Below are positions 8,338 to 64,000 of a stretch of 64,000 nt of DNA, in pieces. The position numbers and the translations under genes are program-made. Under the pieces are notes generated by a model. The model made no database searches. It had not been told where the DNA came from and worked only from the letters and a program-made list of their open reading frames with translations. Numbering within the stretch: the first letter of the stretch is position 1; each line of letters opens with the position of its first letter. This stretch comes from Dictyostelium discoideum (lineage: Eukaryota): contig CM000154.2 in assembly GCA_000004695.1 (NCBI GenBank), forward strand, positions 4,864,001-4,928,000, written 5' to 3'.

Positions 8338-11094
8338 TTATTTGTATTTATTTGTATTTGAAACAATTTTTATAATATTTCTATCAACTTTATCTTGAAT
8401 AAAATCTTTATATCTATTAAATTGATTAATTTTGTTACAAAGTGTTGTATAATTTTTTTGAGATATTGTTAAATTGAATTTTGATTTAATATCTTGATCA
8501 ATTGTATCATTATTTTCAAAATCATCTAATAATAATTTTACAACCAATAGAGGATAGCTTCTTTCAATGATATTTTTTAAACTGAAAAAATAATTCTCCA
8601 TTGGTTTATAATCCATTTGAATATTTTGAGATTTTAATTTCAAATATAAAAAAACTGCAGTTTTATGATCTAAATCTTGGAATCTAACTGGTTGAATGAA
8701 TTCCAACTCATTTTTAAAATCAACATTATTTATCAAATAAAATGTTAAATAATTTGATTTCCATAAGTCAATATAGGAATAATTGTAAATAAATTTAGCT
8801 TTTAATTTTAATGAGAAATATTTAACCATATATTTTATAGTTGTAATATCTATACAATCTGATAATAAATCATCATTAATATCACCAATCCCATTATCAA
8901 AAAGGTATTGTAAAAATTGAATATCACCACTACCACTACCACTACCACCACCATTACCATTATCACCTTTATTATTATTATGATTATTATAACAAATATC
9001 TCTAACTACTGATTTACTAATATCATCTGAATCCCAAGTAAATAATGATTTATGATTTTCAAAATAATATTTAAATAATTTTTTATTATTTAATAAACAA
9101 TGTGCTGAAAATCTCCTTTGATTCGAGTTGATTATGTTGGCTAATCGATTAGCATGTTTTTTAATTTTAAATTGTGTATTTTTTGGATTTATAATATGGC
9201 TTATTAACATTGGATTTGTGAAATTTGTATTTGTAATTGCAATTTTCAAAAACTCTAATTGAGTTTTAATATCAACTCTATCATGATTAAATAAAGGTTG
9301 ACCATCGATTTTGATTTTATGATCTTTATTCATTTTCAATAATTCACAATCTCCATAGTAACATGCTACTCTTACTAAATTATCACCACCTGATGAACAA
9401 GATGGTGGATAAGTTTTTATTAAATCGTATTCCTTATACTCTGAAATGAATTGATAAATCAATGATTCTAAATCATAATTATAAAATCCTTTTTCACTCT
9501 TTGCAAACCAATCAAAATAAAATACTCTTTTAATTTCTCTAACTAATTCAAAATCTTCATAATCAATTTCAGTAAATTCCGTTTCGTCAAAATAAATATA
9601 CTCTTCATTTTCATCTTCTTCTTCATTTTCAACATTATTATTTTTAATAGTATTATTATTATTATTATTAAAAAATGAATAAATATATGATACTGCATCG
9701 TAAATTAAATAAACAATTTTATCATTAGCTGTTGGTGGTGGTGGTGGAGGTGGTGGAGGTGGTGGTGTTGTTGGTGTTGTTGGTGTTGGTTTTATAATAG
9801 CTAAATTATAAATTGAATTTACTTTTTTAGTTGTTTGATTTTCTTTTAAAATATCAGTTTTTTTTAAAATATGTTTGAATGGGGTTTGAATATTTCTATT
9901 TTCATTATATTCTATTAAATGTTCAACTTTTTTAAAAAGTAATGAAGAGATTTGTTTTTCTTTTTTACTAGTTCTATGTGACACTGATAAAACTAGTAAT
10001 GCTGTTAAAATATAATCAATTTGATATTTTTCAAGCACAGATTTTGTTTTGTGGCTTTTGTCAATACAACGACCGTAATTGAAATCTAAATAACTAGCGA
10101 TAGTGCTATAGTTAGCACAACCACTGCCATAATGGTCAAGATAGTTATCAAGTAAATTGTAACTTAGGAAAATATTATTTAAAACTGAAAATGAATTATA
10201 ACCATTGAATTGCAATAATGGAATGTTATAATCATTATATAAACGTTTAAATAATTGGTGATCTAATCTCATCAAATTTTCAAAATATATTTCAAAACTA
10301 CCAGTAAATGAAATTGGTGGTACGAATCCAATTTCATCCAATAGAAATCTAATTAATTCACATCTCTTATTTGAACATAACGCATTATAAAATGCTTTCA
10401 TTGGATCTTTTACCATAATTCCAAGTTCATAATAAATGAATTTAATAATTTTTAAATCACATTTACCTAATGATTTATCAAATAAATCATCATTATTAAT
10501 TCTAAGTTCTTCTATTGTTGTTGTTGTTGTTGTTGTTGTTGTTTTTGTTGTTGCTGAAGTTGAAGTTGAAGAGGAAGTTGAAGAAGAGGAAGTTGATGAT
10601 GGATTGACGGTACCATAATTTTCAAATATAAATTTTAATAAATCTAAATTAGAAGTATCTAATGAAGTTTTAATTAATTCTTGTGTAAGTTTATTTGTAC
10701 TTAATAAAATTGATTTATTTGTATTTAATAATTGATTTAAAATTATTGACGATTCTTCTTTATTTAATGATAGATTATAATGATTATAATAATTATTATT
10801 AAAAAAATAAATAAATGATGTAATAGATTTTGAATCAATTTGATCAAATTTTTCATTTCTTTTAATTTTATATAATAATAATTCTCTTGCATGCTTTAAA
10901 CACCATTCAAAACCTGCTTGATCATATTTTTTAATTTTAAAACAATCTTCTGAATATGATCTACCACCATAAGAAATTTGTTCATTAAATTTATAAACAT
11001 AATCATATATATAATTTGATAAATATTTATTATTAAATACTGATTTATATAAACTATAAATATCTTTATTTTTATTTTTATTTAAATTATTCAT
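8338..11094 (-). CDS. Hypothetical protein, 918 aa, single exon, with poly-Thr, poly-Pro, poly-Asn and GSGSGSG low-complexity tracts.
   Basis: ATG at 11094 (rc of cat 11092-11094). Uninterrupted 2757-nt ORF. N-terminal SLYKSVFNNKYLSNYIYDYVYKF resembles the conserved N-terminus of a Dictyostelium-expanded family, but no domain can be named from the sequence alone. Confidence 0.55.
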   Translation of the reverse strand: MNNLNKNKNKDIYSLYKSVFNNKYLSNYIYDYVYKFNEQISYGGRSYSEDCFKIKKYDQAGFEWCLKHARELLLYKIKRNEKFDQIDSKSITSFIYFFNNNYYNHYNLSLNKEESSIILNQLLNTNKSILLSTNKLTQELIKTSLDTSNLDLLKFIFENYGTVNPSSTSSSSTSSSTSTSATTKTTTTTTTTTIEELRINNDDLFDKSLGKCDLKIIKFIYYELGIMVKDPMKAFYNALCSNKRCELIRFLLDEIGFVPPISFTGSFEIYFENLMRLDHQLFKRLYNDYNIPLLQFNGYNSFSVLNNIFLSYNLLDNYLDHYGSGCANYSTIASYLDFNYGRCIDKSHKTKSVLEKYQIDYILTALLVLSVSHRTSKKEKQISSLLFKKVEHLIEYNENRNIQTPFKHILKKTDILKENQTTKKVNSIYNLAIIKPTPTTPTTPPPPPPPPPPPTANDKIVYLIYDAVSYIYSFFNNNNNNTIKNNNVENEEEDENEEYIYFDETEFTEIDYEDFELVREIKRVFYFDWFAKSEKGFYNYDLESLIYQFISEYKEYDLIKTYPPSCSSGGDNLVRVACYYGDCELLKMNKDHKIKIDGQPLFNHDRVDIKTQLEFLKIAITNTNFTNPMLISHIINPKNTQFKIKKHANRLANIINSNQRRFSAHCLLNNKKLFKYYFENHKSLFTWDSDDISKSVVRDICYNNHNNNKGDNGNGGGSGSGSGDIQFLQYLFDNGIGDINDDLLSDCIDITTIKYMVKYFSLKLKAKFIYNYSYIDLWKSNYLTFYLINNVDFKNELEFIQPVRFQDLDHKTAVFLYLKLKSQNIQMDYKPMENYFFSLKNIIERSYPLLVVKLLLDDFENNDTIDQDIKSKFNLTISQKNYTTLCNKINQFNRYKDFIQDKVDRNIIKIVSNTNKYK

Positions 11095-45002: not shown

Positions 45003-48000
45003 CCTTACTAAACTTAAGTATTTATATATATATATTTAGTCATTAAAAGATTTTGAATCAGTTATATCAGATATATTTTGGTTAATTAGTATAGAGGTTG
45101 AAGGAGTTGTATCGAAATCATCACAAAAAACAAATTTAATCTCATTGATTAAAGAAAGTATCTCTCAAAGTTTAGTTGCATCTGTCATTCTAAAAGAGAA
45201 ATTAGATATTGATTTACTTGAAGAATCTGGTTTAATTAAAAGTTCAAAGAAATTTACAAATAAAATTATTAGAATAAATACAAAAGAAGTGTATGTTATT
45301 ATATAATATATAATATATAAAAATCACACACACACATTCACCTACCAACCACTAATTTTATATATTTTTATATTTTTATATTATTATATTTTTATATTTT
45401 TATATTTTTATATTTTTTTTTTTTTTTAGATATACTCAAGTTAAATTTAATTTATTTAAAGAAGAATCAGAAGGTTTTTCAAAAGTTTTATCAGAATTAA
45501 ATAAAGGATCAGAATTAAATTTGAATTCAGTCGATTCAACTATTCAAAATATTAAATCATTGATTGGTTATTTCAATTTAGATCCAAATCGTGTTTTAGA
45601 TTTAGTATTGGATTCATATGAACAAAATTATCAAAATTCTGAATGTTTTCAAAAGATTATTAAATGTTTTAAAATATCTGCAATACCCCAATTATTGGGG
45701 TTTAAATATCAATATTATCAACAACAACAACATTTACAAATTCAACATATTAAACAACAATTAGAACAACAACAACAAGCTGCTGCTGCTGCTCCAACTA
45801 CTACATCTACAACTGATTCTACAACTACTACTGCAGCAACAACGACACCAACAACAACACCAGCATCAGCATCAGCATCAGCAACATCAACAACAACAGC
45901 AGCCTCATCAACATCAACAACAACAACAATTAATCCAATTGATATTATTACACCAAAATCATTATATATGGTGACAGCAAATTTATTAAAAGAAAAATTA
46001 TTTACATTGGAATCGATTTATCCACATTTAGCACCAAATGATGAAGAGATAAAGAGTCAATTTTTAGCAAGAAAAGAAGAGCTTATTTCATCATCAAAGG
46101 GTGGTACCTTGCCAACCACAGCAGATGATGATTCATCGACTAATAAGAAACCAATGTCAACTAGTGGTACTACAACAATAAGTATTGGTAGTACATCATC
46201 GGTATCATTATCATCGAATAATATTGATTTATTAGTTCAAGAGAATCAGAAATTTAATTTATTAGTATCATTATTAGATGTGAATGATACTGATTGTACA
46301 AATCAATTATTATATCATTTGACATCAAACGGTATTGATGTTGCATCAAATTCACATGTATCCACTGCATTAATCTCAAGATTGAATCAAATTATTGAAC
46401 CGATTTATAGACCAATATCATTTGCAACTTTGAAATCATCATCCTCTGGTAATTGTGGTATTGATTTACCAACTTTTATGGCATCTTCAGAGATGATCTT
46501 CTTTTTACTCTCACATCTCGGTGTTTATTTATCACATGATATTAAATTATTTACAAAATTATGTAGAATTTTAGAAAAAGTTGTACCAAAAGTAATTTCT
46601 TTAGCAAATACCTCAACTATACAAGCACAAGCCGCTGCTCAAGCCCAAGCTCAAGCACAGGCTTCACAAACACAATCTGATTCAATGGTAGTAGATACAC
46701 CACCACCACCAACAACTACCACTATGATTCAACCAAATCAATATTCAACATTTAAATTAGAAATTGAAAATTTAATATCAAATGTATTATTACCAACTTT
46801 ATCAATGATACCAAGTAATCCATGTGCATCTAATGAAATTTGGGAAGTTATTAAGCATTTCCCATATCAAAAGAGATATCAACTTTATTATGAATGGAAA
46901 GAACAATATGGAAAGATATTATCATTGATAGTATTAAAACAAGAGGTAACTGGTGATACTAAAAAGATTCTTAGACGTTTATCAAAGGATAACTATAAAC
47001 AGTATGGTAGAGCCATTGGTAAATTAAGTTATGGTCACCCAACCATTGTTTTACAAGTGATTCTATCACAAGTAGAACAATACGATTCATTGGTAATACC
47101 ATTGGTTGAATCATTGAAATTCATTTCCAATTTGTCTGGTGATGTTTTATCATTTGGTTTATTGGAGAGGTTAACCATTAAACGTGATAAACTTAAACCT
47201 GATGGTACAAATATTTCATCATGGTTTCAAGCGTTGTCATTATTCATTGGCTCATTCTATAAGAAATATCCATCCACCGAATTGGAAGGGTTACTTCAGT
47301 ATACTGTAAATCAATTAAAAGAGAATAATTCATTGGATCTAATCATTTTGAAAGAATTGTTATTAAAAATGGGTCAAACTGAAATCGTTGAAGAACCACC
47401 TGAAGCTCAAATGGAGGCACAAGCTGGTGGTGAAGTATTAAAACAAGAAACTAATACAATCGTTATTACAACTGGTGGTGGTGGTGGTGGTAGTGGTACT
47501 CCTGGTGGTGCTCCTGGTAGTGGTGGTGGTGGTGGTGGTGCATTAAGTAATAGTAGTAGTATTGCAAATGCTCCTAGAAATACAAAGAAATCAATTAATA
47601 GATTAAAAGATACTTTAATCAATAGTAAATTAGCATTCTCATTCTTTGTTTTAATTGCAAAACAACGTTATGATATCATTCATAATACAAGTGAACAATC
47701 ACAACATATTAAATTAATTAGTGATCTCTATGATAAATGTCAAGAAACTTTAATTCAGTATACTGAATTCCTTACAAATCATGCAACATCTGAAAAGTAT
47801 TCAGAATTCTTTAAAGAGGATTTCAATACATTAATCACAACCTATTGCCTAGAGCCAGAAGCTGCTTTTCATATTTATAGACCAATATTTTCAAATGGTG
47901 CTGCCAATAATAGACAATTAATTGTAAATAACTGTAAACAAATTTATCCTGATGAAGTTTGGAAATCAATGAATCCTGAACTATATTCTGTATTTTGGTC

Positions 48001-50885
48001 ATATTCATTATATGACATTTATGTACCAAAAGCATTATATGAAAGTGAAATTGCAAAATTAAAGAATCAAATTACAACAATTGATTATGGTTTAGTTGGT
48101 ACTACTACTACTACCACTGCTACTGCTAGTGGTAGTGGTGGAGGTAATTCTAAAGATATTAATAAAAAGAAAAAAGATAAAGAAAGAATTCAATCAACAA
48201 TTGAAAAACTTCAAAAAGAATTGGCAATTCAAACTTTAAATCATCAAAAAGTTTTAGAACATATTCAATCATTAAAAGATAAATTCTTTGAATTTTCATT
48301 AAATTCACCTGTAAATCAAACAATTAATTCAACAACAACAACAACAACAACTTCAACAACAACTTCAACAACAACAACAACAACAACCCCTACAACAAAA
48401 GATATGTTACAAAATGGTAAAAAAGAAGGTATTATTAAATTTTTACAATATTGTATATTTCCAAGAGCAACATTTACACCAGCAGATGCAATTTATTCAG
48501 CTAAATTTGTTCAAATTTTACATAGTATTAGTACACCAAATTTCTCAACATTAAATTATTTATTAGATCTTTGTCAATCGATTACTTTTATGATTTATTC
48601 AAGTACAGAGAATGAAGCAAATAGATTTGGTAGATTTTTAAATGAATCATTAAGTATCCTAACCAAATGGAAATCATCAGAATCACTATACGATAAGGAA
48701 TGTGCAAAACTTTTAAAAACTTTAGCATTAAGTTATGATAATTTCGTTAGATTCTTTCATCGTTGTCATAAAACAATCTCTGAATCATTTTCAAATTGTT
48801 TAGAGAATGATGAATATATGGTCATTAGAAATGCGCTATTGGCATTAACTAAATTGGTTCATGTTTTCCCAGCTCATAAATCTTCTTATGAAAATATTGA
48901 AAATTTAGTATTAAAGTTAAAGAAAAGAGATGAATTGAAAACATTGGCAATTCGTTATCATTCATTATTAGAAAAAGAAAAACCAAGAATGATTGATGAT
49001 ATCATTAAACCAACAAAACCAAAAGCTAATCTAAAAGATTCAAAATCGCCAACTACAACTTCTTCAACTCAAACTACAACAACAACTTCTTCAAAAGATA
49101 GTGGCACTACTACTACAACTTCTTCATCAACTCCAACTACAACTTCTTCATCAAATAGAGATTCAATTAAAGATGCTGATATGATTGATATTAATGATGA
49201 AAATAATAATAATAATAACAAATCAAAAGAAAAAGAAAAGGAAAGAGAACGTGAAAAAGAAAGAGAAAAAGAAAAGGAAAGAGAAAAGGAAAGAGAAAGA
49301 GAACGTGAAAAAGAAAGAGAAAAAGAAAAAGAAAAGGAAAGAGAACGTGAAAGAGAGAGAGAACGTGAGAGAGAAAAAGAAAGAGATAGAGAACGTGAAA
49401 AAGAACGTGAACGTGAAAGAGAACGTGAACGTGAGAGAGAACGTGAACGTGAAAGAGAAAAAGAAAAAGAAAAAGAAAAGGAAAGAGAACGTGAACGTGA
49501 GAGAGAAAGAGAACGTGAGCGTGAACGTGAAAGAGAGCGTGAACGTGAACGTGAAAAAGAAAAAGAAAGAGATAGAGAACAACGTGAAAAAGAAAGAGAA
49601 AGAGAACAACGTGAAAAAGAAAGAGATAGAAGTGATCGTAATTCCGATAAAAATAATAATAATGATGGTGGTGGTAGTGGTAGTTCAAGAAGTGATAAAT
49701 CCTCTTCAAAAGATAGTGGTAGTAAAAAAGATCAACAAACTCCACGTAAAGAAATTGAAAAATCAGAATCAAGAGAGAATATTCGTGATTCACGTTCAAA
49801 TGATAACAATCAATCATTATCATCCTCTCGTGAAATTAGAGAAAGAGATAAAGAATTAAAAGAAAAAGAGCAACGTGAAAAGGAACAACGTGATAAAGAT
49901 CGTGAAAATAGGGAAAGAGATAATAGAGATGTTAGAGATTCACGTAATGATCAAAGAGGTAATCAAGAAAGAGATGGTGGTGAACCTCAACAACGTAGAC
50001 AACAACAACAACAGCAACAAGAAAGAGATAGAAACGATATTAGGAATCAAGATAATAACAATAATGACTCTCAACAACAACAACAACAACAACAACGTAG
50101 ACAACAAGACAATGATAGAAGAGATAGAGGTAATCAAGATAATATAAATAATAGAGATAATAATAGCAACAATAGAAATGATAATAGAGAAAGACAACCT
50201 AATCAAGATAATAGAGATAACAACAATAATAATAGTAATAGAAATGAAAGAAATGATAGAAATGATAGTAGTAGAGAAAGACAGGATAATAGAAATGAAA
50301 GAAATGATAGTAGAGAAAGACAAGACACTAGAGATAATCGTAAAGATCAACAAAGAGATAATGATAAATCAAATCAAGTGCAAAGGAATCGTGATTCTCA
50401 ACCATCGTCACGTAATTCTTCACCACCCCATAACCAACCACAACAACATCAATCACAGCAACAACAACCACAACAACTTTCTCCACCAATTCCACAAACC
50501 GATGAAGAGAAATTTAAAAATGCAAAGAAAAAGAGAGAAGAGAAATTTGAAAGTAAACAAAAAAATAATAATGAAATCGATCAAGAATCACCTCCAAATA
50601 ATAATAATAATAGTAATCAATCATCAAATTCAAATCCATCTTCAAATCAAAGTAGTAGATCAAATAGTAAGGATAGAAGTGGTGGTCAACAAACTCCTCG
50701 TGATAATCAAGAAAGACAAAGTGGTGAAAATAATAATAATAACAACAATAATAATAATAACACTAGAGATGACCATGATAATAAAGATAAATTAAAAGAA
50801 ATGAGAGATAATATTCGTAAAAAACAAGAAAGTAATAATAATCAAAATAATAATCAAAATAATAATAATAATAATAATAATAATC

Positions 50886-50942
<57 letters not shown>

Positions 50943-51295
50943 CACCACAAGAAAATAGAGAGGATAAAAAGAGAGATAGAGAAAAAGAAGAAGAAAAGGA
51001 AGATCAAAAGAAAAGAAAAACTCAAATTAATCGTAATAGAGTTGGACCATCACCACCTCCACAAAATCTTCACCCTTACCAACCTCCTCAACATCTTCAA
51101 CATCCTCAACATCCTCAACATCCTCATCATCCTATGTCACACCACCATAATCAACACCACAACCAACAACAACAGCAACAACAACAACATCATGGAGGAT
51201 TTAGAGGTGGTAGAAATGACAGAAATGATAGAGATGTTAGAGATGTTAGAGATGAAAGAGATAACAGGAATGATAGATATAATAGAAGAAATTAA
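44746..51295 (+). CDS. thoc2: THO complex subunit 2 (THOC2/Tho2) orthologue with a very long Arg/Glu/Asp/Lys/Asn-rich C-terminal tail. Exons 44746..~44970 (3' boundary unresolved), 45040..45290, 45430..51295.
   Basis: ATG 44746. N-terminal exons align from memory to metazoan THOC2: YDPVNSYIKGSI ~ YELSYHVIKGNL; ISDIFWLISIE ~ ILADVFCILDIE; LLEESGLIKSSKKF ~ LESLGLIKQSQQF; YTQVKFNLFKEESEGFSKVL ~ [44 protein letters not shown] ~ [25 protein letters not shown]. Donor GTATGT at 45291 (phase 2), acceptor tttttttag ending 45429. C-terminal third encoded by nucleotide-level tandem repeats (GAAAGAGAACGTGAAAAA...) giving (KE/RE/RD)n. Confidence 0.8.
49227..49625 (+). repeat. Coding tandem repeat array in thoc2 (units of GAAAGAGAACGTGAAAAA / GAAAAAGAAAAG) encoding (RE/KE/RD)n
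   Basis: Near-perfect nucleotide-level repeats of gaaagagaacgtgaa / aaagaaaaagaaaag over ~400 bp, followed by a degenerate R/D/N/Q-rich low-complexity coding region to ~51290. Confidence 0.85.
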
Positions 51296-51457: not shown

Positions 51458-53902
51458 ATGAAACAAACAAAAAAAGTGGTGGTTGAACCAAAACCATATA
51501 TTAAGGGTGAATTTAAAAATAGATGTTTTGCAAAAGATTTAACTATTACATTTTCAATGGGTGCATTACAAAAGATTAGAAAAATGGATTCAATTGAAAG
51601 GTATGAAACAGTTATGAAGAGTAAAGATTATCAACAATTCAATTCATTTGAATACTTTCAAATGAAAGTTAGTACTTTAATTGCAATTCCATCAAACTAT
51701 TCATTCATTTACCCAATTGGTGAGTTTAATTTCAATGAAAATAAAAATCAATATGAATTTAAACCAATTGAATTCCTAAAAGCAATTGAATTGGTTAAAA
51801 GGGATAGAAGTGGTTTAATCTCTTTTACTTTTTTAAAATCAGTGATTAATAATGGTCCTGAATTTGAATATATAAAAACAAAACCACCATCTAAAAATTA
51901 TTATCAACATGGGCCTTACTATTTAAATAAATCAAACTTGAATGAATGGGAAACAACTTGTGCAAAGTTTGATCAAGAAAATGGTTTAATCTATAAAATG
52001 ATCACAAATAAAAGGTCATCACCATTTTATTCAACTTTAAAAATATTAGTTCATAGAGAAATTAAATTTGGTTTATCAAGTAGTTCGCATACATCACACA
52101 CCTATCCCATTGATAATAATCAACCATATTACCATATTTTAGAAAAAGAAACTGGTTTAAAAACTTTATCAGATGAAAATAATCAAAATAATCAAAATAA
52201 TCAAAATGATGAAAATAATCAAAATGATCAAAATAATGAAAATGATCAAAATGATCAAAATGATGATAATAATAAAGGTTGGGTAGTTAAAAATGAATTT
52301 CCATTTGGATTTTTTTTATTACCAAATCTTAAAGAAATTTGTTTTTCAGTTTTAAAAGAAATGTTTTTAATTAGTAATAAATCAGTTATTGATAAATTAT
52401 TTTCATCAATTAAATCGATAGTACCAATTAGTTTATTACAAGAATTTGTAGTTGATTGTTTTAATGATGAGAAACCAGTTGGTAATGAAATTATTTTTAA
52501 AATTTATTCAAAATCTTTATGTGAAAATTATGATTCAATTCTTTCAAATATTAATTTCCCATTAAATGATTTATTATCAAGTTGTATTAAAAGAGATTCT
52601 TGGTTTAGATATAACTATGATATGTGTATTGCACAAGATTTATTTTATCCACCTTATAAAGAAAATTTTGCAATTAATGTTTATGAAAATTTAAATTTAT
52701 TTAAATTTAAATCGATTCCGATTGAAAATAGAAAAAATATTTTATTTGAAAAAACTGGTGGTTTGGATGATTTTAACTCTTTGATTACTGGTGATCAGTC
52801 GATTGTTGACAAGTCAATGTTTATTTCAAATTTTAATAGACTTACAAATAATAGATTTAATAAAACTTTTGATGATGGTGAGAGTGGTTTTGAAAAATTA
52901 AAGAAATTAGATTGTATTTTCATTGGTGGTATTATTACAAATTGTTTAATTCAAAATGAAAATAATGATGATGGTAAGGATGTATGTGAAGGATTCGAGA
53001 AATCAGATATTGATATTTGTTTTTTCAATACATCCAACGATTTTTACGCTCAAGTTGCTCGTTTTATTGATCAGTTCTTTAAAGGTGTTGATAGGTATGA
53101 TAGTGAGGCATCAAATAATTGTAGTATTGTTTTTCAGGGAAATCATGTTACCATTTGTCAACATTATCCAAATCGTCATATTCAATTAAATCTTTATTCA
53201 CATTTATCAATTGAGGATGTTTTAATTGGTGTCGATATTGATGCAACTTGTTTTGCATTTGATGGTATTGATATATGGTGTTTAGAAAGAGCGTTGCATT
53301 CAATCAATTATCGTATTAATATCGCATCAGAGCATTCATTTTTAATTAGAGGAGATGTTAATTATCAATATAGACTACTCAAATATTTAAAACGTGGATT
53401 TGATATTTATTATTTATCAACTCCACAAATTGATAAAATTATTAATCAAGCAAACTTTGGCAATCAATCTAAATCAAATTCACCACCAACTAAAGATTTC
53501 ACCCCATCATTAAGACATGTTGGATTTTCATTATTATTATCATTAAGAATGGATTCAACACTTTACACTCCATTTTTTAAAACCAAAGAAAGATCTGAAA
53601 CTATTTTACCCTATGGTCCAAATTTTGATGATAAATATTTTAAAAGATGGGTAGGTCATAATTTCAATAAACACTACGATGGCTATAATAGTAATGATAT
53701 TCTTCAACTACTAGAAACTCCTATTTCAGATATGGATATGGGCCATAGAGATTCAATATCTTATAATCATGAATGGATCAACTCATTAAATGATAGATCA
53801 TCTAATTACATATACAATGAAGATTATTATTATAATTTTGAAGTAGATGATGAAGAAGAAGACGGTGGTGAACCTAATTACCCCGAATATAATGATTCAT
53901 AA
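51458..53902 (+). CDS. Orphan protein (814 aa), single exon. The C-terminal region has a Pol-beta-superfamily nucleotidyltransferase-like motif set (OAS/cGAS/Mab-21-like); N-terminal two-thirds are unassigned.
   Basis: ATG 51458-51460. Continuous 2445-nt ORF with typical Dictyostelium codon bias and a (CAAAAT/GAT)n Asn/Gln/Asp tract. Motifs: IGGIITNCLIQNENNDDGKDVCEGFEKSDIDICFFNTS (hGG...[S]DhDh, with an N/D-rich insert) and LIGVDIDATCFAFDGI (third acidic residue in an h[DE]h.PAF-like context, compare OAS1 GVEFDVLPAFDAL). Confidence 0.65.
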   Translation: MKQTKKVVVEPKPYIKGEFKNRCFAKDLTITFSMGALQKIRKMDSIERYETVMKSKDYQQFNSFEYFQMKVSTLIAIPSNYSFIYPIGEFNFNENKNQYEFKPIEFLKAIELVKRDRSGLISFTFLKSVINNGPEFEYIKTKPPSKNYYQHGPYYLNKSNLNEWETTCAKFDQENGLIYKMITNKRSSPFYSTLKILVHREIKFGLSSSSHTSHTYPIDNNQPYYHILEKETGLKTLSDENNQNNQNNQNDENNQNDQNNENDQNDQNDDNNKGWVVKNEFPFGFFLLPNLKEICFSVLKEMFLISNKSVIDKLFSSIKSIVPISLLQEFVVDCFNDEKPVGNEIIFKIYSKSLCENYDSILSNINFPLNDLLSSCIKRDSWFRYNYDMCIAQDLFYPPYKENFAINVYENLNLFKFKSIPIENRKNILFEKTGGLDDFNSLITGDQSIVDKSMFISNFNRLTNNRFNKTFDDGESGFEKLKKLDCIFIGGIITNCLIQNENNDDGKDVCEGFEKSDIDICFFNTSNDFYAQVARFIDQFFKGVDRYDSEASNNCSIVFQGNHVTICQHYPNRHIQLNLYSHLSIEDVLIGVDIDATCFAFDGIDIWCLERALHSINYRINIASEHSFLIRGDVNYQYRLLKYLKRGFDIYYLSTPQIDKIINQANFGNQSKSNSPPTKDFTPSLRHVGFSLLLSLRMDSTLYTPFFKTKERSETILPYGPNFDDKYFKRWVGHNFNKHYDGYNSNDILQLLETPISDMDMGHRDSISYNHEWINSLNDRSSNYIYNEDYYYNFEVDDEEEDGGEPNYPEYNDS

Positions 53903-54029
53903 GTAAGAAATCAATAGTAATCTTTATATGTATGTGAAGTAAAAATATAAATAAAGGCATTAGGTTTTTTAATTTACTTTGTAGTTTTTTTATTTTTATT
54001 TTTATTTATATTTATATTTATTTATTGTT

Positions 54030-57000
54030 TTAATTTAATTGTTTTAATTTGCTTTGTATTTGTTCTTTAAACTTTTTGGAATTTTTATTTTTGATAAAAA
54101 TGTATACAACCGAGATAACAATAATTGCCACAAAACACACTGAACCAATTACAATTCCTGCGATTTTACTGGCTGATAATCCATTTGATTTCGAACAAAT
54201 TGAATTCTCTCCTGATGCTGATTCGCTATCTAATAAAACAAAGAAATCTGGATCAATAATTACTTTATTTTTAAAATGTGGAATTTTAATTCCAATAAAA
54301 GTTTGAGTAGAGTGAGATGTTGATTCAGCAATTGTATTTTGGAATTCATCTAACAATGTATTTTCAATACCAACAATATTACCATCTACTACAGCCCTTT
54401 TAATGAATCTACCATACATTGAATGATCTTGAACTTGAAGTTTAATGTAGTTAGAGTTGTCACCATTTGTAGTATCACCAAATTGTTTTAATGAACAAAA
54501 ATCATCACTTTCATCTGTTGATAATATCGAAGCAAACATTACCAATTCGAGATTATTTAAAGCTGAAGAGAATACATAATTTTCAATTTCAATGGTAAAT
54601 TTGACTGATGATGGATTCATTTGGAGCTCTTGACCTGCAAATGTTATATTTTTGCTTGAATTAAACCATTGAATAATTGTTGTTATATTTGTGGTTTTAA
54701 TATCGTTACCATTTTGAGAAACTATTGATGTATTGTATCTACCAGTTGTTAAATCTATATCTTCAAATACCCATTTATCAAAAGGGAATGTTTTAATAAC
54801 TTCACCTTTAAAATCTAATTCTCTAATAGAAACTAAAGTTACTAATGATTTAAATAAAAATTCTGTTGAGTTTGTTTCTTGTCCACCACCACCGCCTGTA
54901 ATAGGAATTTCAACTGTTGGTTGTGAAGTATTTGTTTGTGGTGTTGGGATAATAATAATTTTTGAAGTACAATCAACTCCGTACCAAGGAGAGTAACAAA
55001 TGCATCCAAACCCACTTTGACAATAACCTTTGTTTTTTCCTCCACATTCTGGATTTCCTAAACATTTTTGAGGTGGATTTGTTGGTAATGGTGATATAGT
55101 TGGTTGTAAAGTTGGTTGTAAAGTTGGTTCTGGTGTATATGTTGGACCAGAATAATTAAAATTATAAACTATTGGATTAATTAAAAATTCATTTGATTTA
55201 ATGTTAATTTGATTGGAATCAAGTAATAATAATTTAAAAGGAATATCGATTAATGGTACCTCTGTTAATTTAATGAAACTTGAATAGGTTTTAGTTATTG
55301 TTTTTAAATTTATGTCACTACCATTCGAAATATAAATAATCGCTGTATCAACTGTACGAAAGTTTTTACCAAAAATAAATAGAGTTGAATCTTTGTTTGT
55401 AAATTCTGAAACTGATGTTATTATTGGTATATTAAATGAAAAATCTGTAGAAACAAACCAATCTTGTTGTAATGGATTTAAATCCTTAATGTCTTTTGAA
55501 GAGAATCCACTATAGGTTCCTCTATTATTAATAAAGCCATAAACAGATACTAAGAAACCATCAGGATATCCAAAACCTACTGGTACTTCTATTGTACACG
55601 AAAAGGTTATTGTAGTTGAATTAGTAATTGTTGGTGTTGCTCGGCATTGTTCCATTGCAAGTCGTTGTGGAACTAAATAAACTATTGGATTCTGTCCTTG
55701 TTTAAAACCGCTTTCTAAATCTTGTGCTTGAAAAGTGAATGTTATTGATCTATCTAAAGAGCCTACATCCATTGAAGATCTCGAGGTTTTAAAGGAAATT
55801 AAATTTGGAGGAGAACTATCCAATTCACCAGTACAATAATAATTAATACTAAAGGGTGATGAATCATTAATGAAATGAATAAATGGATTACGAGTTGACT
55901 CAAACGATTGAGTGTTTTCATAATACTCTAAAGTGAAATATTTAACATATGTATTATTGTTACCATATGTATCGAATAAACTTGCTTGAGTTATTAAATA
56001 ATCTTGAGTGATACAATTACTACTCCCAATACCAAACTCCAATGGTATTATAATTTTGTAATCACCAATAATTTTATCACCACTTCCTTCTATTAAATTT
56101 GACATGTTTATTGTAATGTTGTAGAATGAAGAATCTAAAAGTCCTTTAACAATTAAAAAGCCATCTCTGAAACCGTTTATTTCATCTTGAATTGTAAATA
56201 ACCATCCATTATGTTGTTTTATGATTTTGGTTACAATTGGTCCATAAATATCAACCTTAATTGAAGTTGCTCTTAATTGATATTCATTGGATAAATAATT
56301 ACTATCAATTAAGTTTGTATTATCAAGTACCAATGCATAACTTATATTTCCTGGTAGTGTATTTGCAGGTACTTTAAAGTTTACTCTAAATCTATTGGTT
56401 GTTTGGTCCCATACTGCAAATTTATAATTTGGATTTAAAATAGTAAATATACTATTTTCAAATCTAATATCGTTTAAAGATTTTTCATCAGTTAAATAAA
56501 AACCAATTGACAAGTCTTTATAGTCTTCAATATTATTAAATGTAAAAAACATTATATTATCAACTGATTGGTCAGTTATATCAATGTCATTATATAAAAA
56601 TGATACCTGAACTAAATCATTTAAATAATTATAATCTATTAAAATAATATTAAAAAAATTATTAGTAATGAATTATAGTAGTTTTAAAAGTGTATTATTA
56701 ATACAATTTTCTTACTTTTTAAATTAATACTTGGATATGTAAGTTTTGAAATGTTATTACCAATCTGGTAGAGATAATCACCAAATCCATATGTAACTGG
56801 GTAATCTAGGTTGCCTTCTATTTTTATTGAATTTTCGGTGATAGCATTGCTTATTTCAACAAGCTCAAATTTTATTTCTGTAAGATACTCCCAAATACCA
56901 TCAGAAGCGGTACCAGAAACAAGCATACCATTATCATGAACAGTATTCTTTGAGTTCATAATTTTTAAATACGAAACTGAAGATAAATTTGGTGAGCCGA

Positions 57001-57873
57001 TACTTTTAATTTCAATTCTGTTTAAAAACTTTAGATTTCCGATATAACTAGATGTAAAAGATTGGATTTCAAATCTTCCAACATCGGAATTAGGTAATGT
57101 AATAAATGGTTCGAAATCTCCCCTCATTTTAGTAATACATCTAGGCATACATATAGTAAGAATATTCAAAGGTGAAATGGATATTAAATTAATTGGTAAA
57201 GAGAATCCAAATTTGACCATTTCATTATTTCCTCCAATAAAGCCAAATGGAAAATCGGTAATAGTAAATGTTTGTTTATATTCTAATTGAAATGGATTAA
57301 AATCAAATTTAAATTCTGTTCCATTATACTCAGATGTAACCATTGCCATACCAACAGTTGAATTATCTTTGATAGAAGTTAACTTTGAGTTTGGTGTTTG
57401 TAATCTTGGGCTTTCTATTTTTTTAATTTGAAATATTTATATATATATATCAATTTTAATATTAATATATTTCAATTTTTTTTTTAAATATTTTAAGATT
57501 AAAAAATTAAATCAAATTTACCTGTTATATTAACAAAAAAATTGGAATATTCTTTAAATGATGGTTGTGTTTCATTTTGTCCATACAATGAAAAGTTCAT
57601 ACCATTAGCCATAATTGGTAAACAAGTTGCAATAAATGTTAAATTATTTGGTTTACCTAAAATTGGTCTTGGTGTTGAATAATATCCTAAAGTACCCAAT
57701 CTATACACCGGATTTAGAAGATTTGATTTGATTCTAAATGATAAAAGTGAACCAAATACATTTGAATATAAAACAAAATTTCCTGAAGGTGGATAAAGTT
57801 TTAAATCATAAATTTCATTCGTTACAATATTTCCTCCTTTTAAATTAAAATTAAAAATTATTATTATTATTAT

Positions 57874-57909
<36 letters not shown>

Positions 57910-58694
57910 ACTATTTTTAAAAGGTACACTAATTATTAAGTTGTTTGAAATTGGAAATGTAAAATCAATTGACCAAATATCAAGATTTTGTGACAAATAG
58001 AAATTTTCATTATAAACTATTCTGAATAAATTTCCACCCATTTTATATACCTTTACAATTTGTGAATCATATGTAAATTCAACATTTTCTGGCAAGTTAT
58101 TAATTCTGACAACCGAAAAATATTTAAAAGTAGTACTCCATATAACATCTTGAATAATATCTACTGATAGAGTTGAAATATTTAACTCTTTTTTTTATTT
58201 ATTATTAATAGAGAAAAAAATGATTAAAAAAAAAAATGATTAAAAAAAAAAAAATGATAAAAAAAAAAAAAAAAAATTGGTAATATGTTATTAATAAAAT
58301 ATTAAATATTAAAAATAATAATAAAAAAATTATTACCTTTACAATCTAAATTTAAATCAAAATATCCTATTGATGGATCAATAACAGTACCACTATTTGC
58401 AACAAATTGGTAAAAATTGTTACCTAATTGAGATTGAATATCAACTCTAAAAAGAGTAAAAGAAGAATTTGTCCATTGTATAAAACCTGCTATTAAAAAA
58501 TCTGTATCTGCCATAGTGTTAACCGTTTGACCTTGTAAACCCTCTACTAAAAAAAATTTTATTGTATAGCAACTATTTCCATTTAAAAAAGAAGAATTTT
58601 TTGAAGGTGTGAGATCTGTAAATTTAAATTGTTGAGCATTTACATTTAATTTTATTATTATAAAAATTAATAAAAAGAATAAATTCCTTATCAT
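54030..58694 (-). CDS. Large secreted type-I membrane glycoprotein, tandem copy A (~1417 aa): signal peptide, repeated beta-rich ectodomain modules, one EGF-like module, C-terminal TM and short basic tail. Exons 58694..58337, 58187..57912, 57836..57522, 57414..56716, 56635..54030.
   Basis: ATG 58694 (MIRNLFFLLIFIIIKLNVNAQQ, signal peptide). All four introns are phase 1 with GT donors (GTAATA, GTAAGT, GTAAAT, GTAAGA) and AG acceptors. Total CDS 4254 nt, in frame. EGF-like module CLGNPECGGKNKGYCQSGFGCICYSPWYGVDC. Pro/Thr linker. TM IAGIVIGSVCFVAIIVISVVYIF followed by KNKNSKKFKEQIQSKLKQLN*. Many NxS/T sequons. Possibly an IPT/TIG-type (tgr-like) family, but that is not verifiable from the sequence alone. 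Confidence 0.7.
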
Positions 58695-59511
58695 TTTTAT
58701 TTTTTTTTTTTAAGTAATGTTTTTCCAGACTAATTAAAAAAAAAAAAAAAAAAATGAAAATAAAAATAAAAATAAAACAAATAAAAAATAATAAAAATAA
58801 AAAAAAATAACAAAAAAAAAAAAAAAAAAAAAATCTTTTAAATGCCAACACCACAAAAAAAATTAGTCACATCAATACGAACACCCCAAAAAAAAAAAAA
58901 AACAATCAATTTAATCAAAAAAAAAAAGATTTTTTCAAAAAAAAATATCAAGTGAAAAGATAATTTTTTCATTTATTTTTGAACGGTTTTTTTTTTTTTT
59001 TTTTCGAAAAAGCCGATTAAAATAAATTGCAATGGAAGGGTGATGACATCATTAGCATTCGAAATACCAAACAATGAATTATTATTTTCATTTTATTTTA
59101 TTTTTTTTTTTTTTGTAAATTAGATCATTATTTGAAAATTATTATACTTTTTTTTTTTTTTTTTATTTTTGTTTTAGAAAAAAAAATTTAATAAAAAAAA
59201 AAAATGTTGTGAAAAATTAAAAAACGAATAAGATTTTTTTTTTTTTTTTTTTTTTTAAATGTAGTGTTTTAAAAAATATCTTTTAAACAGTGCATTTATA
59301 AAAATTTCGAAGCAAATTGGATTTTTTTTTTGGATGGTTATTTTTAGAATAATTCATAAATAAAAAATCATTAATAAAGATACATATTTATTTATAAGTA
59401 AGAAGTCAATATTAATCTTTATATATGTATGTAAAAATAAATAAAGACATTAGGTTTTATTTACTTTGTAGATTTTTATTTTTATTTTTATTTATATATT
59501 TATTTTTTGTT

Positions 59512-62500
59512 TTAATTTAATTGTTTTAATTTGCTTTGTATTTGTTGTTTAAACTTTTTGGATTTTTCATTTTTGATAAAAACATAAACAATAGAAATAA
59601 TAACAACTGCCACAAAACACACTGAACCAATTACAATTCCTGCAATTTTACTGGCTGATAATTCATTTGATTTTGAACAAATTGAATTCTCTCCTGATGC
59701 TGATTCGCTATCTAATAAAACAAAGAAATCTGGATCAATAATCACTTTATTTTTAAAATGTGGAATTTTAATTCCAATAAAAGTTTGAGTAGAGTGAGAT
59801 GTTGATTCAGCAATTGTATTTTGGAATTCATCTAACAATGTATTTTCAATACCAACAATATTGTCATCGACTACAGCCCTTTTAATGAATCTACCATACA
59901 TTGAATGATCTTGAACTTGAAGTTTAATGTAGTTAGAGTTGTCACCATTTGTAGTATCACCAAATTGTTTTAATGAACAAAAATCATCACTTTCATCTGT
60001 TGATAATATCGAAGCAAACATTACCAATTCTAGATTATTTAAAGCAGAGGAGAATACATAATTTTCAATTTCAATGGTAAATTTGACTGATGATGGATTC
60101 ATTTGGAGCTCTTGACCTGCAAATGTTATATTTTTGCTTGAATTAAACCATTGAATAATTGTTGTTATATTTGTGGTTTTAATGTCGTTACCATTTTGAG
60201 AAACTATTGATGTATTGTATCTACCAGTTGTTAAATCAATTTCATCAAATACCCATTTATCAAAAGGGAATGTTTTAATAACTTCACCTTTAAAACCTAA
60301 TTCTCTTATTGAAACTAAAGTTACCAATGATTTAAATAAAAATTCTGTTGAGTTTGTTTCTTGTCCACCACCACCACCTGGTATTGGAATTTCAACTGTT
60401 GGTCCTGAAGTATTTGTTTGTGGTGTTGGGATAATAATAATTTTTGAAGTACAATCAATTCCATACCAAGGAGAGTAACAAATGCATCCAAACCCACTTT
60501 GACAATAACCTTTGTTTTTTCCTCCACATTCTGGATTTCCTAAACATTTTTGAGGTGGATTTGTTGGTAATGGTGATATAGTTGGTTGTAAAGTTGGTTG
60601 TAAAGTTGGTTCTGGTGTATATGTTGGACCAGAATAATTAAAATTATAAACTATTGGATTAATTAAAAATTCATTTGATTTAATGTTAATTTGATTGGAA
60701 TCAAGTAATAATAATTTAAAAGGAATATCGATTAATGGTACCTCTGTTAATTTAATGAAACTTGAATAGGTTTTAGTTATTGTTTTTAAATTTATGTCAC
60801 TACCATTCGAAATATAAATAATCGCTGTATCAACTGTACGAAAGTTTTTACCAAAAATAAATAGAGTTGAATCTTTGTTTGTAAATTCTGAAACTGATGT
60901 TATTATTGGTATATTAAATGAAAAATCTGTAGAAACAAACCAATCTTGTTGTAATGGATTTAAATCCTTAATGTCTTTTGAAGAGAATCCACTATAGGTT
61001 CCTCTATTATTAATAAAGCCATAAACAGATATTAAGAAACCTTCAGGATATCCAAAACCTACTGGTACTTCTATTGTGCATGAAAAGGTTATAGTGGTCG
61101 TATTGGTAATTGTTGGTGTTGCTTGACATTGTTCCATTGCAAGTCGTTGTGGAACTAAATAAACTATTGGATTCTGTCCTTGTTTAAAACCGCTTTCTAA
61201 ATCTTGTGCTTGAAAAGTGAATGTTATTGATCTATCTAAAGAGCCTACATCCATTGAAGATCTCGAAGTTTTAAAGAATATTAAATTTGGAGGAGAACTA
61301 TCCAATTCGCCATTACAATAATAATTAAATATTAAGGGTGATGAATCATTAATGAAATGAATAAATGGATTACTAGTTGAATCAAAGAATTGAGAGTCCT
61401 CATAAAATTCTTGAACGAAATGTTTAACATATGTATTATTGTTACCATATGTATCGAATAAACTTGCTTGAGTTATTAAATAATCTTGAGTGATACAATT
61501 ACTAATTCCAATACCAAACTCCAATGGTATTATAATTTTGTAATCACCAATAATTTTATCACCACTTCCTTCTATTAAATTTGACATGCTTATTGTAATG
61601 TTGTAGAATGAAGAATCTAAAAGTCCTTTAACAATTAAAAAGCCATCTCTGAAACCGTTCACTTCATCTTGGATTGTATATACCCAACCATTCTGTTGTT
61701 TTATGATTTTGGTTACAATTGGTCCATAAATATCAACCTTAATTGAAGTTGCTCTTAATTGATATTCATTGGATAAATAATTACTATCAATTAAGTTTGT
61801 ATTATCAAGTACCAATGCATAACTTATATTTCCTGGTAGTGTATTTGCAGGTACTTTAAAGTTTACTCTAAATCTATTGGTTGTTTGGTCCCATACTGCA
61901 AATTTATAATTTGGATTTAAAATAGTAAATATACTATTTTCAAATCTAATATCTTTTAAAGATTTTTCATCAGTTAAATAAAAACCAATTGACAAATCTT
62001 TATAGTCTTCAATATTATTAAATGTAAAAAACATTATATTATCAACTGATTGGTCAGTGATATCAATGTCATTATATAAAAATGATACCTGAACTAAATC
62101 ATTTAAATAATTATAATCTATTAAAATAATATTAAAAAAATTATTAGAAATGAATTACAGTGGTTTTTTATGTGTAAAATTAATAGAACTTTCTTACTTT
62201 TTAAATTAATACTTGGATATGTAAGTTTTGAAAATTCATTACCAATTTGATAGACCGTGTCACCAAATTCATATGTACTTCGAGTATCTTTGGTGCCTAC
62301 AATTTTTATTGTATTTTTTATGCTAGCACTACTTAATTCAACAAAATCAAATTTTATTTCTGTAACAAACTCCCAAAAACCTTCAGAAGCGGTACCAGAA
62401 ACAAGCATACCATTATCCAAAACAATATACTTTGTTTCTTTAATTTCTAAAAATGAAACTGAAGATAAATTTGGTGAAACTGTACTTTTAATTCCAATTC

Positions 62501-63362
62501 GGTTTAAAAACTTTAGATTCCCGATATAAATTGATGTAAAATATTGGATTTCAAGTTTTCCAACATCGGTGTCGGGTAATATAATAAATGGTTCGAAATC
62601 CCCTCTCATTTTATGAGTACATCTTGGCATACATAAGTTTAAGATATTCAAAGGTGAAATTGACATTAAATCAGCTGGTAAAGAGAATCCAAATTTGACC
62701 ATTTCATTATTTCCTCCAATAAAGCCAAATGGAAAATCGGTAATAGTAAATGTTTGTTTATATTCTAATTGAAATGGATTAAAATCAAATTTAAATTCTG
62801 TTCCATTATACTCAGATGTAACCATTGCCATACCAACAGTTGAATTATCTTTGATAGAAGTTAACTTTGAGTTTGGTGTTTGTAATCTTGGGCTTTCTAT
62901 TTTTTTAATTTGAAATATTTACATATATATATATCAATTTTAATATTAATATATTTCGATTTTTTTTTTAAATATTTTAAGATTAAAAAAATTAAATCAA
63001 ATTTACCTGTTATATTAACAAAAAAATTGAAAAATTCTTTAAATGATGGTTGTGTTTCATTTTGTCCATATAATGAAAAGTCCATACCATTAGCCTTAAT
63101 TGGTAAACAGGTTGCAATAAATGTTAAATTATTTGGTTTACCTAAAATTGGTCTTGGTGTTGAATAATATCCTAAAGTACCCAACCTAAATACTGGATTT
63201 TGAAGATTTGATTTGATTCTAAACGATAAAAGTGAACTAAGTATATTTGAATATAAAACAAATTGTCCTAAAGGTGGATAAAGTTTTAAATCATAAATTT
63301 CATTCGTTACAATATTTCCTCCTTTTAAATTAAAATTAAAAATTTGTTAATAAATTATTAAT

Positions 63363-63398
<36 letters not shown>

Positions 63399-64000
63399 AC
63401 TATTTTTAAAAGGAACACTAATTTTTAAACTATTTGAAACTGAAAATGTAAAATCAATTGACCAAGTATTAAGATTTTGAAACAAATAGAAATTTTCATT
63501 ATAAACTATTCTGAATAAATTTCCACCCATTTTATATACCTTTACAATTTGTGAATCATATGTAAATTCAACATTTTCTGGCAAGTTTTTAATTTTTACA
63601 ACTGAAAAATATTTAAAAGTAGTACTCCATATAACATCTTGAATAATATCTACTGATAGAGTTGAAATATTTAACTCTTATTTTTTTTTTATTATAAAAA
63701 TATATATAAATAATAAAAAAAAAATTAGTAACATGATATTAAAAAATAAAAAATAAAAAAAATCATTACCTTTACAATCTAAATTTAAATCAAAATATCC
63801 TATTGATGGATCAATAACAGTACCACTATTTGCAACAAATTGGAAAAAACTGTTACCTCTTGGAGATTGAATATCAAATTCAAAAAGACTAAAAGAAGAA
63901 TTTGTCCATTGTATTAAACCTCCTATTAAAAAATCTACATCTCCCATAGTGTTAACCGTTTGACCTTGTAAACCCTCTACTAAAAAAAATTTAGTTGTTT
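59512..64000 (-). CDS. Tandem copy B of the same membrane glycoprotein gene; 5' end (signal-peptide exon) runs past the window end. Exons >64000..63769, 63676..63401, 63321..63007, 62896..62198, 62117..59512.
   Basis: Exon/intron structure and splice signals are identical to copy A at an offset of 5482-5489 bp. The 840-aa terminal exon is ~95% identical in protein to copy A; upstream exons are clearly more diverged. Confidence 0.65.

Follow-up and report, generated by a model that had tools for sequence, protein, structure and literature searches.

Evidence for repeated gene conversion between two tandem ComC-family genes of Dictyostelium discoideum that keep islands of copy-specific difference

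The window analysed here is a stretch of 64,000 nucleotides (nt) of Dictyostelium discoideum DNA (GenBank assembly GCA_000004695.1, contig CM000154.2, positions 4,864,001 to 4,928,000 of the forward strand), with a base composition of ~22% G+C and encoded proteins that are exact matches to those of strain AX4. Two neighbouring genes at its high-coordinate end, A and B, encode type-I membrane glycoproteins of the ComC family. These genes are very probably paralogs of an old duplication that have undergone repeated interlocus gene conversion, with four copy-specific islands remaining in the outer part of the protein.

A blastn self-comparison matched unit A (53889-58273) to unit B (59384-63762) with 94.07% identity over 4400 columns and 27 gap openings, and a second match paired 58306-58559 with 63736-63992 at 92.6%. 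No third gene copy was found inside the window by tblastn. Both genes lie on the minus strand, so that each unit has its terminal exon at the low-coordinate end. Gene A (DDB_G0291027; P0001) is complete; its exons translate exactly to P0001, of 1417 amino acids (aa), and its four introns (149, 75, 107, and 80 nt) are all GT-AG. Gene B (DDB_G0291045; P0002) has the same five-exon layout, and the window ends at its codon 49, with the start codon outside. The missing part was read in the orthologous locus of an AX2-like assembly (ACTFIT, L007), which is 99.89% identical to the window. Long minus-strand open reading frames (ORFs) of 840 aa each lie at 54030-56552 and 59512-62034. Exon 5, of 2603 nt plus the stop codon, aligns without gaps between the copies (56635-54033 and 62117-59515) at a fixed offset of 5482 bp. 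Blastn and protein mapping agree with the initial annotation on a head-to-tail duplication in which each copy is a five-exon gene for a ~1400-aa protein. That annotation had also taken both copies to be intact: A is so in its entirety, and the reading frames of B are open with the A-type GT-AG splice sites present, but B is demonstrable inside the window only from residue 49. An assembly artefact is unlikely as the origin of the second copy, because four independent assemblies agree. The units and exons are as follows.

53889..59383, minus strand: unit A, comprising the 3′ flank, gene A, and the 689-bp upstream spacer (blastn; homology begins at the stop codon of a convergent 814-aa gene)
58337..58694, minus strand: gene A exon 1, codons 1-119 plus 1 nt, with the signal peptide at 58694-58635 and the GT donor at 58336 (exact P0001 mapping)
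57912..58187, minus strand: gene A exon 2 (protein mapping)
57522..57836, minus strand: gene A exon 3 (protein mapping)
56716..57414, minus strand: gene A exon 4, the most diverged exon (protein mapping, exon alignment)
54030..56635, minus strand: gene A exon 5 with stop codon (ORF, protein mapping, Pfam, AlphaFold2 [AF2])
56252-55830, 55808-55440, and 55064-54957, minus strand: DUF7035, DUF7034, and the EGF-like DUF7949 in gene A exon 5 (Pfam)
54881-54234 and ~54170-54096, minus strand: ComC_SSD and the transmembrane (TM) helix in gene A exon 5 (Pfam, AF2)
58695..59383, no strand: A-B spacer, the putative promoter region of A (weak; AT-rich DNA)
59384..64000, minus strand: unit B, comprising the 3′ flank and gene B from codon 49 of P0002, ending with the window (blastn, protein mapping; the rest read in L007)
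63770..64000, minus strand: gene B exon 1, partial at the window end (protein mapping)
63401..63676, minus strand: gene B exon 2 (protein mapping)
63007..63321, minus strand: gene B exon 3 (protein mapping)
62198..62896, minus strand: gene B exon 4 with the A-type donor; the public P0002 donor is 42 nt downstream (protein mapping)
59512..62117, minus strand: gene B exon 5 with stop codon, +5482 from A (ORF, protein mapping)

Only ~60 bp of the A-B spacer beside the ATG clearly resembles the sequence upstream of B. The remainder is ~62% colinear with the ancestral intergenic spacer, a weak match in AT-rich DNA, and the upstream breakpoint of the duplication is therefore uncertain. The public model of DDB_G0291045 (P0002, 1435 aa) extends 42 nt into intron 4 (62118-62197; A counterpart 56636-56715), with a donor GT made by an A-to-G change and 14 extra residues, SKKVLLILHIKNHY. 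Since the A-type GTAAG donor is intact in B, a product of ~1421 aa is more likely than one of 1435 aa.

Divergence between A and B is not uniform along the unit, either in windowed identity or in synonymous divergence (dS), in keeping with the mosaic described in the initial annotation. The identities by segment are given below.

Exon 1: 92.6%
Intron 1: 84.8%, plus many gap columns
Exon 2: 94.6%
Intron 2: 89.3%
Exon 3: 94.3%
Intron 3: 99.1%
Exon 4: 88.1%
Intron 4: 87.5%
Exon 5: 96.7% (85 mismatches, 0 gaps)
3′ flank: 90.1%

The mismatch rate was 3.3% in exon 5 and 8.7% in exons 1-4 (Fisher p=1.8e-13). Patches of low identity lie at 57175-56676 (80-85%) and, within exon 5, at 56075-55776 (89-92%). 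A terminal exon almost identical at a constant offset was thus only partly borne out: the offset holds and the EGF region contains a perfect 568-bp block, but the exon as a whole carries the 85 mismatches listed. The same applies to a split between a homogenised 3′ part and diverged exons 1-4 and introns, because exons 1-4 are indeed more mismatched, but intron 3 is nearly identical, a 246-bp identical run lies in the 5′ part, and one patch of exon 5 has diverged. Many indels had been claimed for exons 1-4; exons 2-4 have none, and indels between the copies are limited to exon 1 and introns 1-3.

The orthologous locus was taken from seven assemblies (L001-L007) belonging to the genome set of a published study, which covers AX2-214, CR116C, and OT3A, M4B and S6B as possible cryptic species, and further strains (PMC12745789). 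Two copies were present in D. discoideum ACTFIW (L003), ACTFIR (L006), and ACTFIT (L007). One copy was present in D. firmibasis (L001), D. citrinum (L002), and D. cf. discoideum ACTFIZ (L005), where the single-copy gene is flanked by an ATP-sulfurylase/APS-kinase gene on one side and the convergent 814-aa gene on the other. A complete A-type gene is present in D. cf. discoideum ACTFIY (L004), preceded by a B remnant in which two pieces of B exon 5 (10157-10353) adjoin the B 5′ end (9883-10152) and the usual B-A spacer comes next. In this lineage B is a pseudogene remnant, and the annotated ACTFIY_000949 (P0003, 1443 aa; L004 9883-11364, GCA_054859205.1) wrongly fuses it to A, with a ComC_SSD fragment at the N-terminus. 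In ACTFIR (L006 3295-9115), the gene model for B runs together with the APS-kinase portion of the sulfurylase gene upstream, giving a 'partial' product of 1581 aa; the fusion is probably an artefact of annotation, since the B frame is intact with A-type splicing.

Trees of these alleles differ between segments of the gene. The neighbour-joining tree of codons 1-120 and 391-560 placed the A alleles (AX4, ACTFIW, ACTFIR, ACTFIY) in one clade (bootstrap 99%) and the B alleles in another (100%). The tree of codons 901-1417 instead paired A with B of AX4 (98%) and gathered the four ACTFIW and ACTFIR copies in a clade of their own (100%), inside which A and B paired within ACTFIW and within ACTFIR (88% and 64%). 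Segment distances were incongruent along the gene in the same manner as the bootstrapped trees. Codons 901-1417 hold 56 shared polymorphic sites and 1 fixed difference, and codons 1-560 hold 22 shared and 45 fixed; no fixed A/B difference was found in codons 909-1417 among four A and three B alleles.

Concordant runs were evaluated with a Sawyer-type permutation test on 516 polymorphic columns. The longest A-B run in AX4 covered 30 sites (55536-55008; p<=0.0002), compared with 17 at the 99.9th percentile of the permutations. The longest run in ACTFIR was elsewhere, with 54 sites (equivalent to 55097-54312; p<=0.0002), and that in ACTFIW had 13 sites (p=0.009). Runs between ortholog pairs were not clearly significant (p=0.05-0.27). 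The identical blocks thus hold many strain-variable sites, and the tracts arose independently by lineage. Three tracts were delimited in the window.

54982..55549 (B 60464-61031), minus strand: conversion tract 1 of the AX4 lineage, 568 bp identical, codons 912-1101, with 30 consecutive concordant sites
56212..56471 (B 61694-61953), minus strand: conversion tract 2, 260 bp identical, with 13 concordant polymorphic sites
57194..57439, minus strand: conversion tract 3, 246 bp identical, running from the last part of intron 3 into exon 4; here the B copy resembles A, with the direction A to B

Tract 1 begins at the end of DUF7034 and takes in most of the EGF-like module. The direction of tract 3 follows from codons 301-390, where B of AX2 is nearer to the A copies of ACTFIW and ACTFIR (0.026) than to their B copies (0.044-0.048), which indicates A-to-B conversion in the AX4 lineage. 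Over codons 561-900, the A and B copies are all more closely related to one another than to ACTFIY (100%), which suggests that an earlier conversion took place and that the copies then diverged again. Repeated non-reciprocal conversion has thus removed the distinction between the paralogs from most of exon 5 and from stretches of the 5′ half, through tracts of ~250-800 bp whose position varies by strain and which hit the membrane-proximal EGF module, ComC_SSD, the TM helix, and the tail. The proposal that gene conversion homogenised the 3′ part is therefore upheld by the strain-wise clustering, the run tests, and the lack of any fixed difference after codon 908.

A single duplication with uneven purifying selection and a slowly evolving 3′ half, and no conversion at all, is scarcely credible. 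Exon 5 does have the lowest dN/dS ratio (omega, 0.28; dN, nonsynonymous divergence) and encodes the most conserved domains of the family. Nevertheless, A-B dS is 0 in codons ~301-390, 571-690, and 901-1080 and 0.2-0.4 in codons 361-560 and 781-840, and uneven protein constraint cannot produce such a mosaic. Nor would it account for the 30 strain-variable sites within the identical 568-bp block, the strain-wise clustering of A with B in codons 901-1417 (98-100% bootstrap), the intron sequence in one identical tract, or the differences in tracts between strains.

The A-B dS of the main island (codons 391-538) was 0.27-0.39, compared with 0.06-0.08 between AX4 and ACTFIW/ACTFIR in the flanks and with 0.13-0.17 between AX4 and ACTFIZ. 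An island dS of ~0.3, about four times the between-strain divergence, makes the duplication several-fold older than the strain splits. The duplication is thus old and common to the four D. discoideum genomes, with a B remnant left in a cryptic sister lineage. ACTFIZ grouped with B in the island (90% bootstrap) and fell outside both clades in codons 1-120 (99%). The island thus says that the duplication predates the ACTFIZ split and codons 1-120 say that it does not; ACTFIZ possibly retains only a B-like copy.

Fixed differences were scored in the four A and three B alleles, and the 56 fixed sites were distributed as follows.

58425..58586, minus strand: codons 37-90, in the first beta-sandwich domain; 11 nonsynonymous and 0 synonymous fixed
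57703..57954, minus strand: codons 198-256, spanning intron 2; 4 nonsynonymous and 0 synonymous fixed
56750..57193, minus strand: codons 391-538, the main island; 21 nonsynonymous and 9 synonymous fixed, dS 0.27-0.39
55845..56024, minus strand: codons 754-813, inside DUF7035; 8 nonsynonymous and 2 synonymous fixed, mostly derived in B
Codon 908: 1 nonsynonymous and 0 synonymous fixed

The ratio of nonsynonymous to synonymous sites was 45:11 for fixed differences and 286:213 for polymorphisms (McDonald-Kreitman [MK]-type comparison, Fisher p=0.001), and this excess of nonsynonymous fixed differences is suggestive only. Polarised with D. citrinum, the fixed changes are chiefly derived in B. Omega in codons 1-120 was 1.4-3.5 between alleles and 1.2-3.0 between paralogs, with just 1-2 synonymous differences (Sd), and in codons 391-560 it was 0.4-1.0, with a between-strain identity of 83-85%. 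In the AF2 model, the fold around the main island is predicted with confidence (predicted local distance difference test [pLDDT] mostly 81-95). The idea of selection on the N-terminal ectodomain thus finds backing in the 45:11 ratio and in omega of 1.2-3.5, but with 1-2 synonymous changes relaxed constraint may also account for these values. Fast evolution is restricted to the N-terminal islands, for which selection is plausible, although positive selection and relaxed constraint are inseparable with these data.

Instead of reflecting old A/B divergence, the exon-4 island could in principle have come from another ComC paralog or another species, through ectopic conversion or introgression. Its sharp border (57194 is the last identical base and 57193 the first island codon), its dS near the discoideum-citrinum level, and the grouping of ACTFIZ with B would suit such an origin. 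Import is nonetheless very improbable, as the A-type and B-type sequences resemble each other and ACTFIZ more than they do D. citrinum, and each type recurs at the same positions in three or four strains. Identity to either island is at most 34% in all other family members, and an ectopic donor was rejected on this ground.

The family assignment rests on domain profiles. Pfam gave the order DUF7035 (678-818), DUF7034 (826-948), the EGF-like DUF7949 (1074-1109), and ComC_SSD (1135-1350), all far above cut-offs; ComC_SSD (PF22933) scored 90.4 bits in P0001 and 86.0 bits in P0002 against a cut-off of 24. The identical module set is precomputed in 70+ homologues. The protein begins with a hydrophobic signal peptide, MIRNLFFLLIFIIIKLNVNA, and carries 25 N-glycosylation sequons. 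AF2 models made on 37-sequence alignments were all-beta, both for residues 21-680 (pLDDT 80.8, predicted template modelling score 0.79) and for the exon-5 product (pLDDT 77.4), which has a long C-terminal TM helix at 794-839 of the product. The signal peptide, beta modules, EGF-like module, and TM segment read from the DNA at the outset are thus confirmed. Each protein consists of a signal peptide, an ectodomain of ~1350 residues of tandem beta-sandwiches, one EGF-like module, the ComC 'supersandwich', a single TM segment, and a tail of ~20 aa. A Foldseek search of PDB returned tandem immunoglobulin (Ig)/fibronectin type III/macroglobulin/IPT-like sandwiches at low TM-scores (A2ML1, LILRB3, contactins, plexin); such generic matches imply no specific functional analogy. 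A sequence-profile search of PDB gave no match.

All 74 homologous clusters were dictyostelid (74/74), nearly all from group-4 Dictyostelium, and the non-Dictyostelium matches were two weak ones. A and B share with the ComC family its domain architecture, length of ~1400 aa, signal peptide, and single TM segment, as well as the near-restriction to group-4 Dictyostelium and the frequent occurrence in tandem arrays. Tandem arrays of ComC-family genes are common (ACTFIV_005019-005022, ACTA71_010252-010258, ACTFIU_002522-002525). The AX4 tandem pairs Q54IE0/Q54ID9 and Q54GM9/Q54GM8 are older and merely 57-60% identical. With a protein identity of 90.7%, A and B are the most similar among the AX4 tandem ComC neighbours compared and, unlike those other neighbours, the pair with visible concerted evolution. 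Kibler et al. reportedly described comC in 2003 within a lagC-linked cell-communication pathway. Our literature search for comC together with lagC found nothing. comC is listed with EGF domains, signal peptide and TM segment ('S+T, 4'), and in group 4 only (PMC4931340 Table 3), and its mutant shows aberrant aggregation (PMC2873529 Table 1). By analogy with ComC, A and B may be developmental cell-surface adhesion or signalling receptors.

The initial annotation had expected a polymorphic, tgr-like kin or allorecognition locus, with N-terminal ectodomains under diversifying or balancing selection and A and B as recognition partners. Several observations would accord with this. Like TgrB1 and TgrC1, A and B are dictyostelid-specific type-I surface glycoproteins of Ig-like beta-sandwiches, and TgrB1/TgrC1 also evolve via duplication, recombination, and loss (PMC12745789). 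Residues 391-560 are just 83-85% identical between strains, omega between alleles reaches 1.4-3.5 in codons 1-120, only some lineages of the discoideum clade have B, and the group-4-restricted family includes comC with its aggregation mutant (PMC4931340, PMC2873529). Divergence between AX4 and ACTFIW/ACTFIR was therefore set beside that of the flanking genes.

A alleles: dS 0.084-0.098, dN ~0.03, omega ~0.3
B alleles: dS 0.102-0.109, dN ~0.03, omega ~0.3
814-aa neighbour: dS 0.074-0.079, dN ~0.03, omega 0.37
ATP-sulfurylase gene: dS 0.060, dN 0.002, omega 0.04

Whole-gene omega of A and B (0.28-0.35) is like that of the 814-aa neighbour, and their dS of 0.08-0.11 is near the 0.06-0.08 of the flanks. 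Between-strain aa identity was 93.0-93.5% for A and 92.6-92.9% for B, similar to four other ComC paralogs (91.5-96.6%), whereas identities in the discoideum clade are 80-90% for TgrB1 and 65-70% for TgrC1 (PMC12745789). Since identity and dS match those of the flanks and the ComC paralogs, the whole genes are not hypervariable, and hypervariability among isolates was rejected by these flanking-gene and family controls; polymorphism does not exceed theirs save in small islands, and omega in the main island is at most 1. Of the two modules sought by profile search, an EGF-like one was found (DUF7949), but neither P0001 nor P0002 matched TIG/IPT (PF01833) at E<=1, and Foldseek gave generic Ig-like folds only, with the plexin IPT at rank 42. 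Membership of the Tgr/TIG group was rejected for this reason and in view of the ComC-family architecture. Unlike TgrB1/TgrC1, moreover, A and B are head-to-tail paralogs with 90.7% identity on AX4 chromosome 5, rather than a ligand gene and a receptor gene transcribed divergently. The ComC family goes unmentioned in the 2025 tgr genome paper. A tgr-type locus is thus improbable. It is likewise unlikely that A and B form a second, ComC-type recognition module of the D. discoideum species complex, in which the N-terminal islands would be specificity determinants under positive selection and copy loss in a lineage would contribute to developmental or mating incompatibility between cryptic species; the islands in the first beta-sandwich domain and at aa 391-560 and the B remnant in ACTFIY would fit such a module.

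Some points weigh against repeated conversion between old paralogs with protected islands, or limit how the evidence for it is to be read. The borders of the tracts are only bracketed by flanking mismatches, and dN/dS was obtained by Nei-Gojobori counting with few synonymous sites in a 22%-GC genome. Strains and cryptic species are pooled in the MK-type test, which takes no account of conversion and uses few, recombining samples. The first 48 codons of AX4 B, outside the window, were borrowed from the AX2-like assembly, and literature searches for DDB_G0291027 and DDB_G0291045 found no paper naming either gene ID. The islands may have been kept by selection against conversion, if the outer domains diverged in binding, or by the divergence itself, which would block conversion.

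Several other features lie in or near the window. The convergent 814-aa gene is a single-exon gene at 51458-53902, plus strand, whose end is 127 bp from the stop codon of gene A and whose own stop codon is the downstream boundary of the duplication (53889); 'Gad2' (PF26128) is precomputed for its orthologs, and local Pfam gives a weak WTF match only. A 1924-aa ORF lies at 45521-51295, plus strand, and its orthologs are annotated at 2098-2238 aa. It contains long in-frame low-complexity repeats at 49156-49640 and 50085-51020, K/E/R-rich and Q/T/S-rich with periods of 9-18 nt, which are 75-80% conserved between strains, far below the rest of the gene. Outside the window, a very large TIG-domain gene (2449-2469 aa; L002 1-1463, L005 1-2043, L007 1-1908) lies ~8-10 kb upstream of the ComC-like locus, past DNase II and Sod_Cu genes, in D. 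citrinum, ACTFIZ, and the AX2-like assembly; its protein is too large for a typical Tgr protein. The ACTFIY locus has a 5.2-kb insertion between the ATP-sulfurylase gene and the B remnant (L004 4708-9883), absent from all other loci, with four small called genes, one of which has a deoxynucleoside-kinase domain (PF01712).

Concerted evolution of tandem paralogs with protected specificity regions is known from human RHD/RHCE, red/green opsins, gamma-globins, and major histocompatibility complex class I/II. A and B resemble these cases in that short-tract conversion homogenises part of the gene, trees are incongruent, and copies are lost in some lineages; their islands likewise resist homogenisation and are rich in nonsynonymous fixed differences, and the islands of the textbook cases carry functional differences. 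They differ in belonging to a haploid social amoeba with an extremely AT-rich genome and in being homogenised over the stalk next to the membrane, the TM helix, and the tail. The locus is a new, well-resolved, and fairly ordinary case of a known process; it is no new kind of system and, on present evidence, no new allorecognition locus. As an instance of concerted evolution in a social amoeba it is clean and fully dated, with recurrent short tracts, resistant islands, asymmetric divergence, and loss of a copy in a sister lineage, and it led to the correction of three public gene models. The islands mark patches of ~60-170 residues that are likely to bear copy-specific function in an uncharacterised ComC-family receptor, and they provide targets for domain swaps in a family whose founding member affects aggregation.

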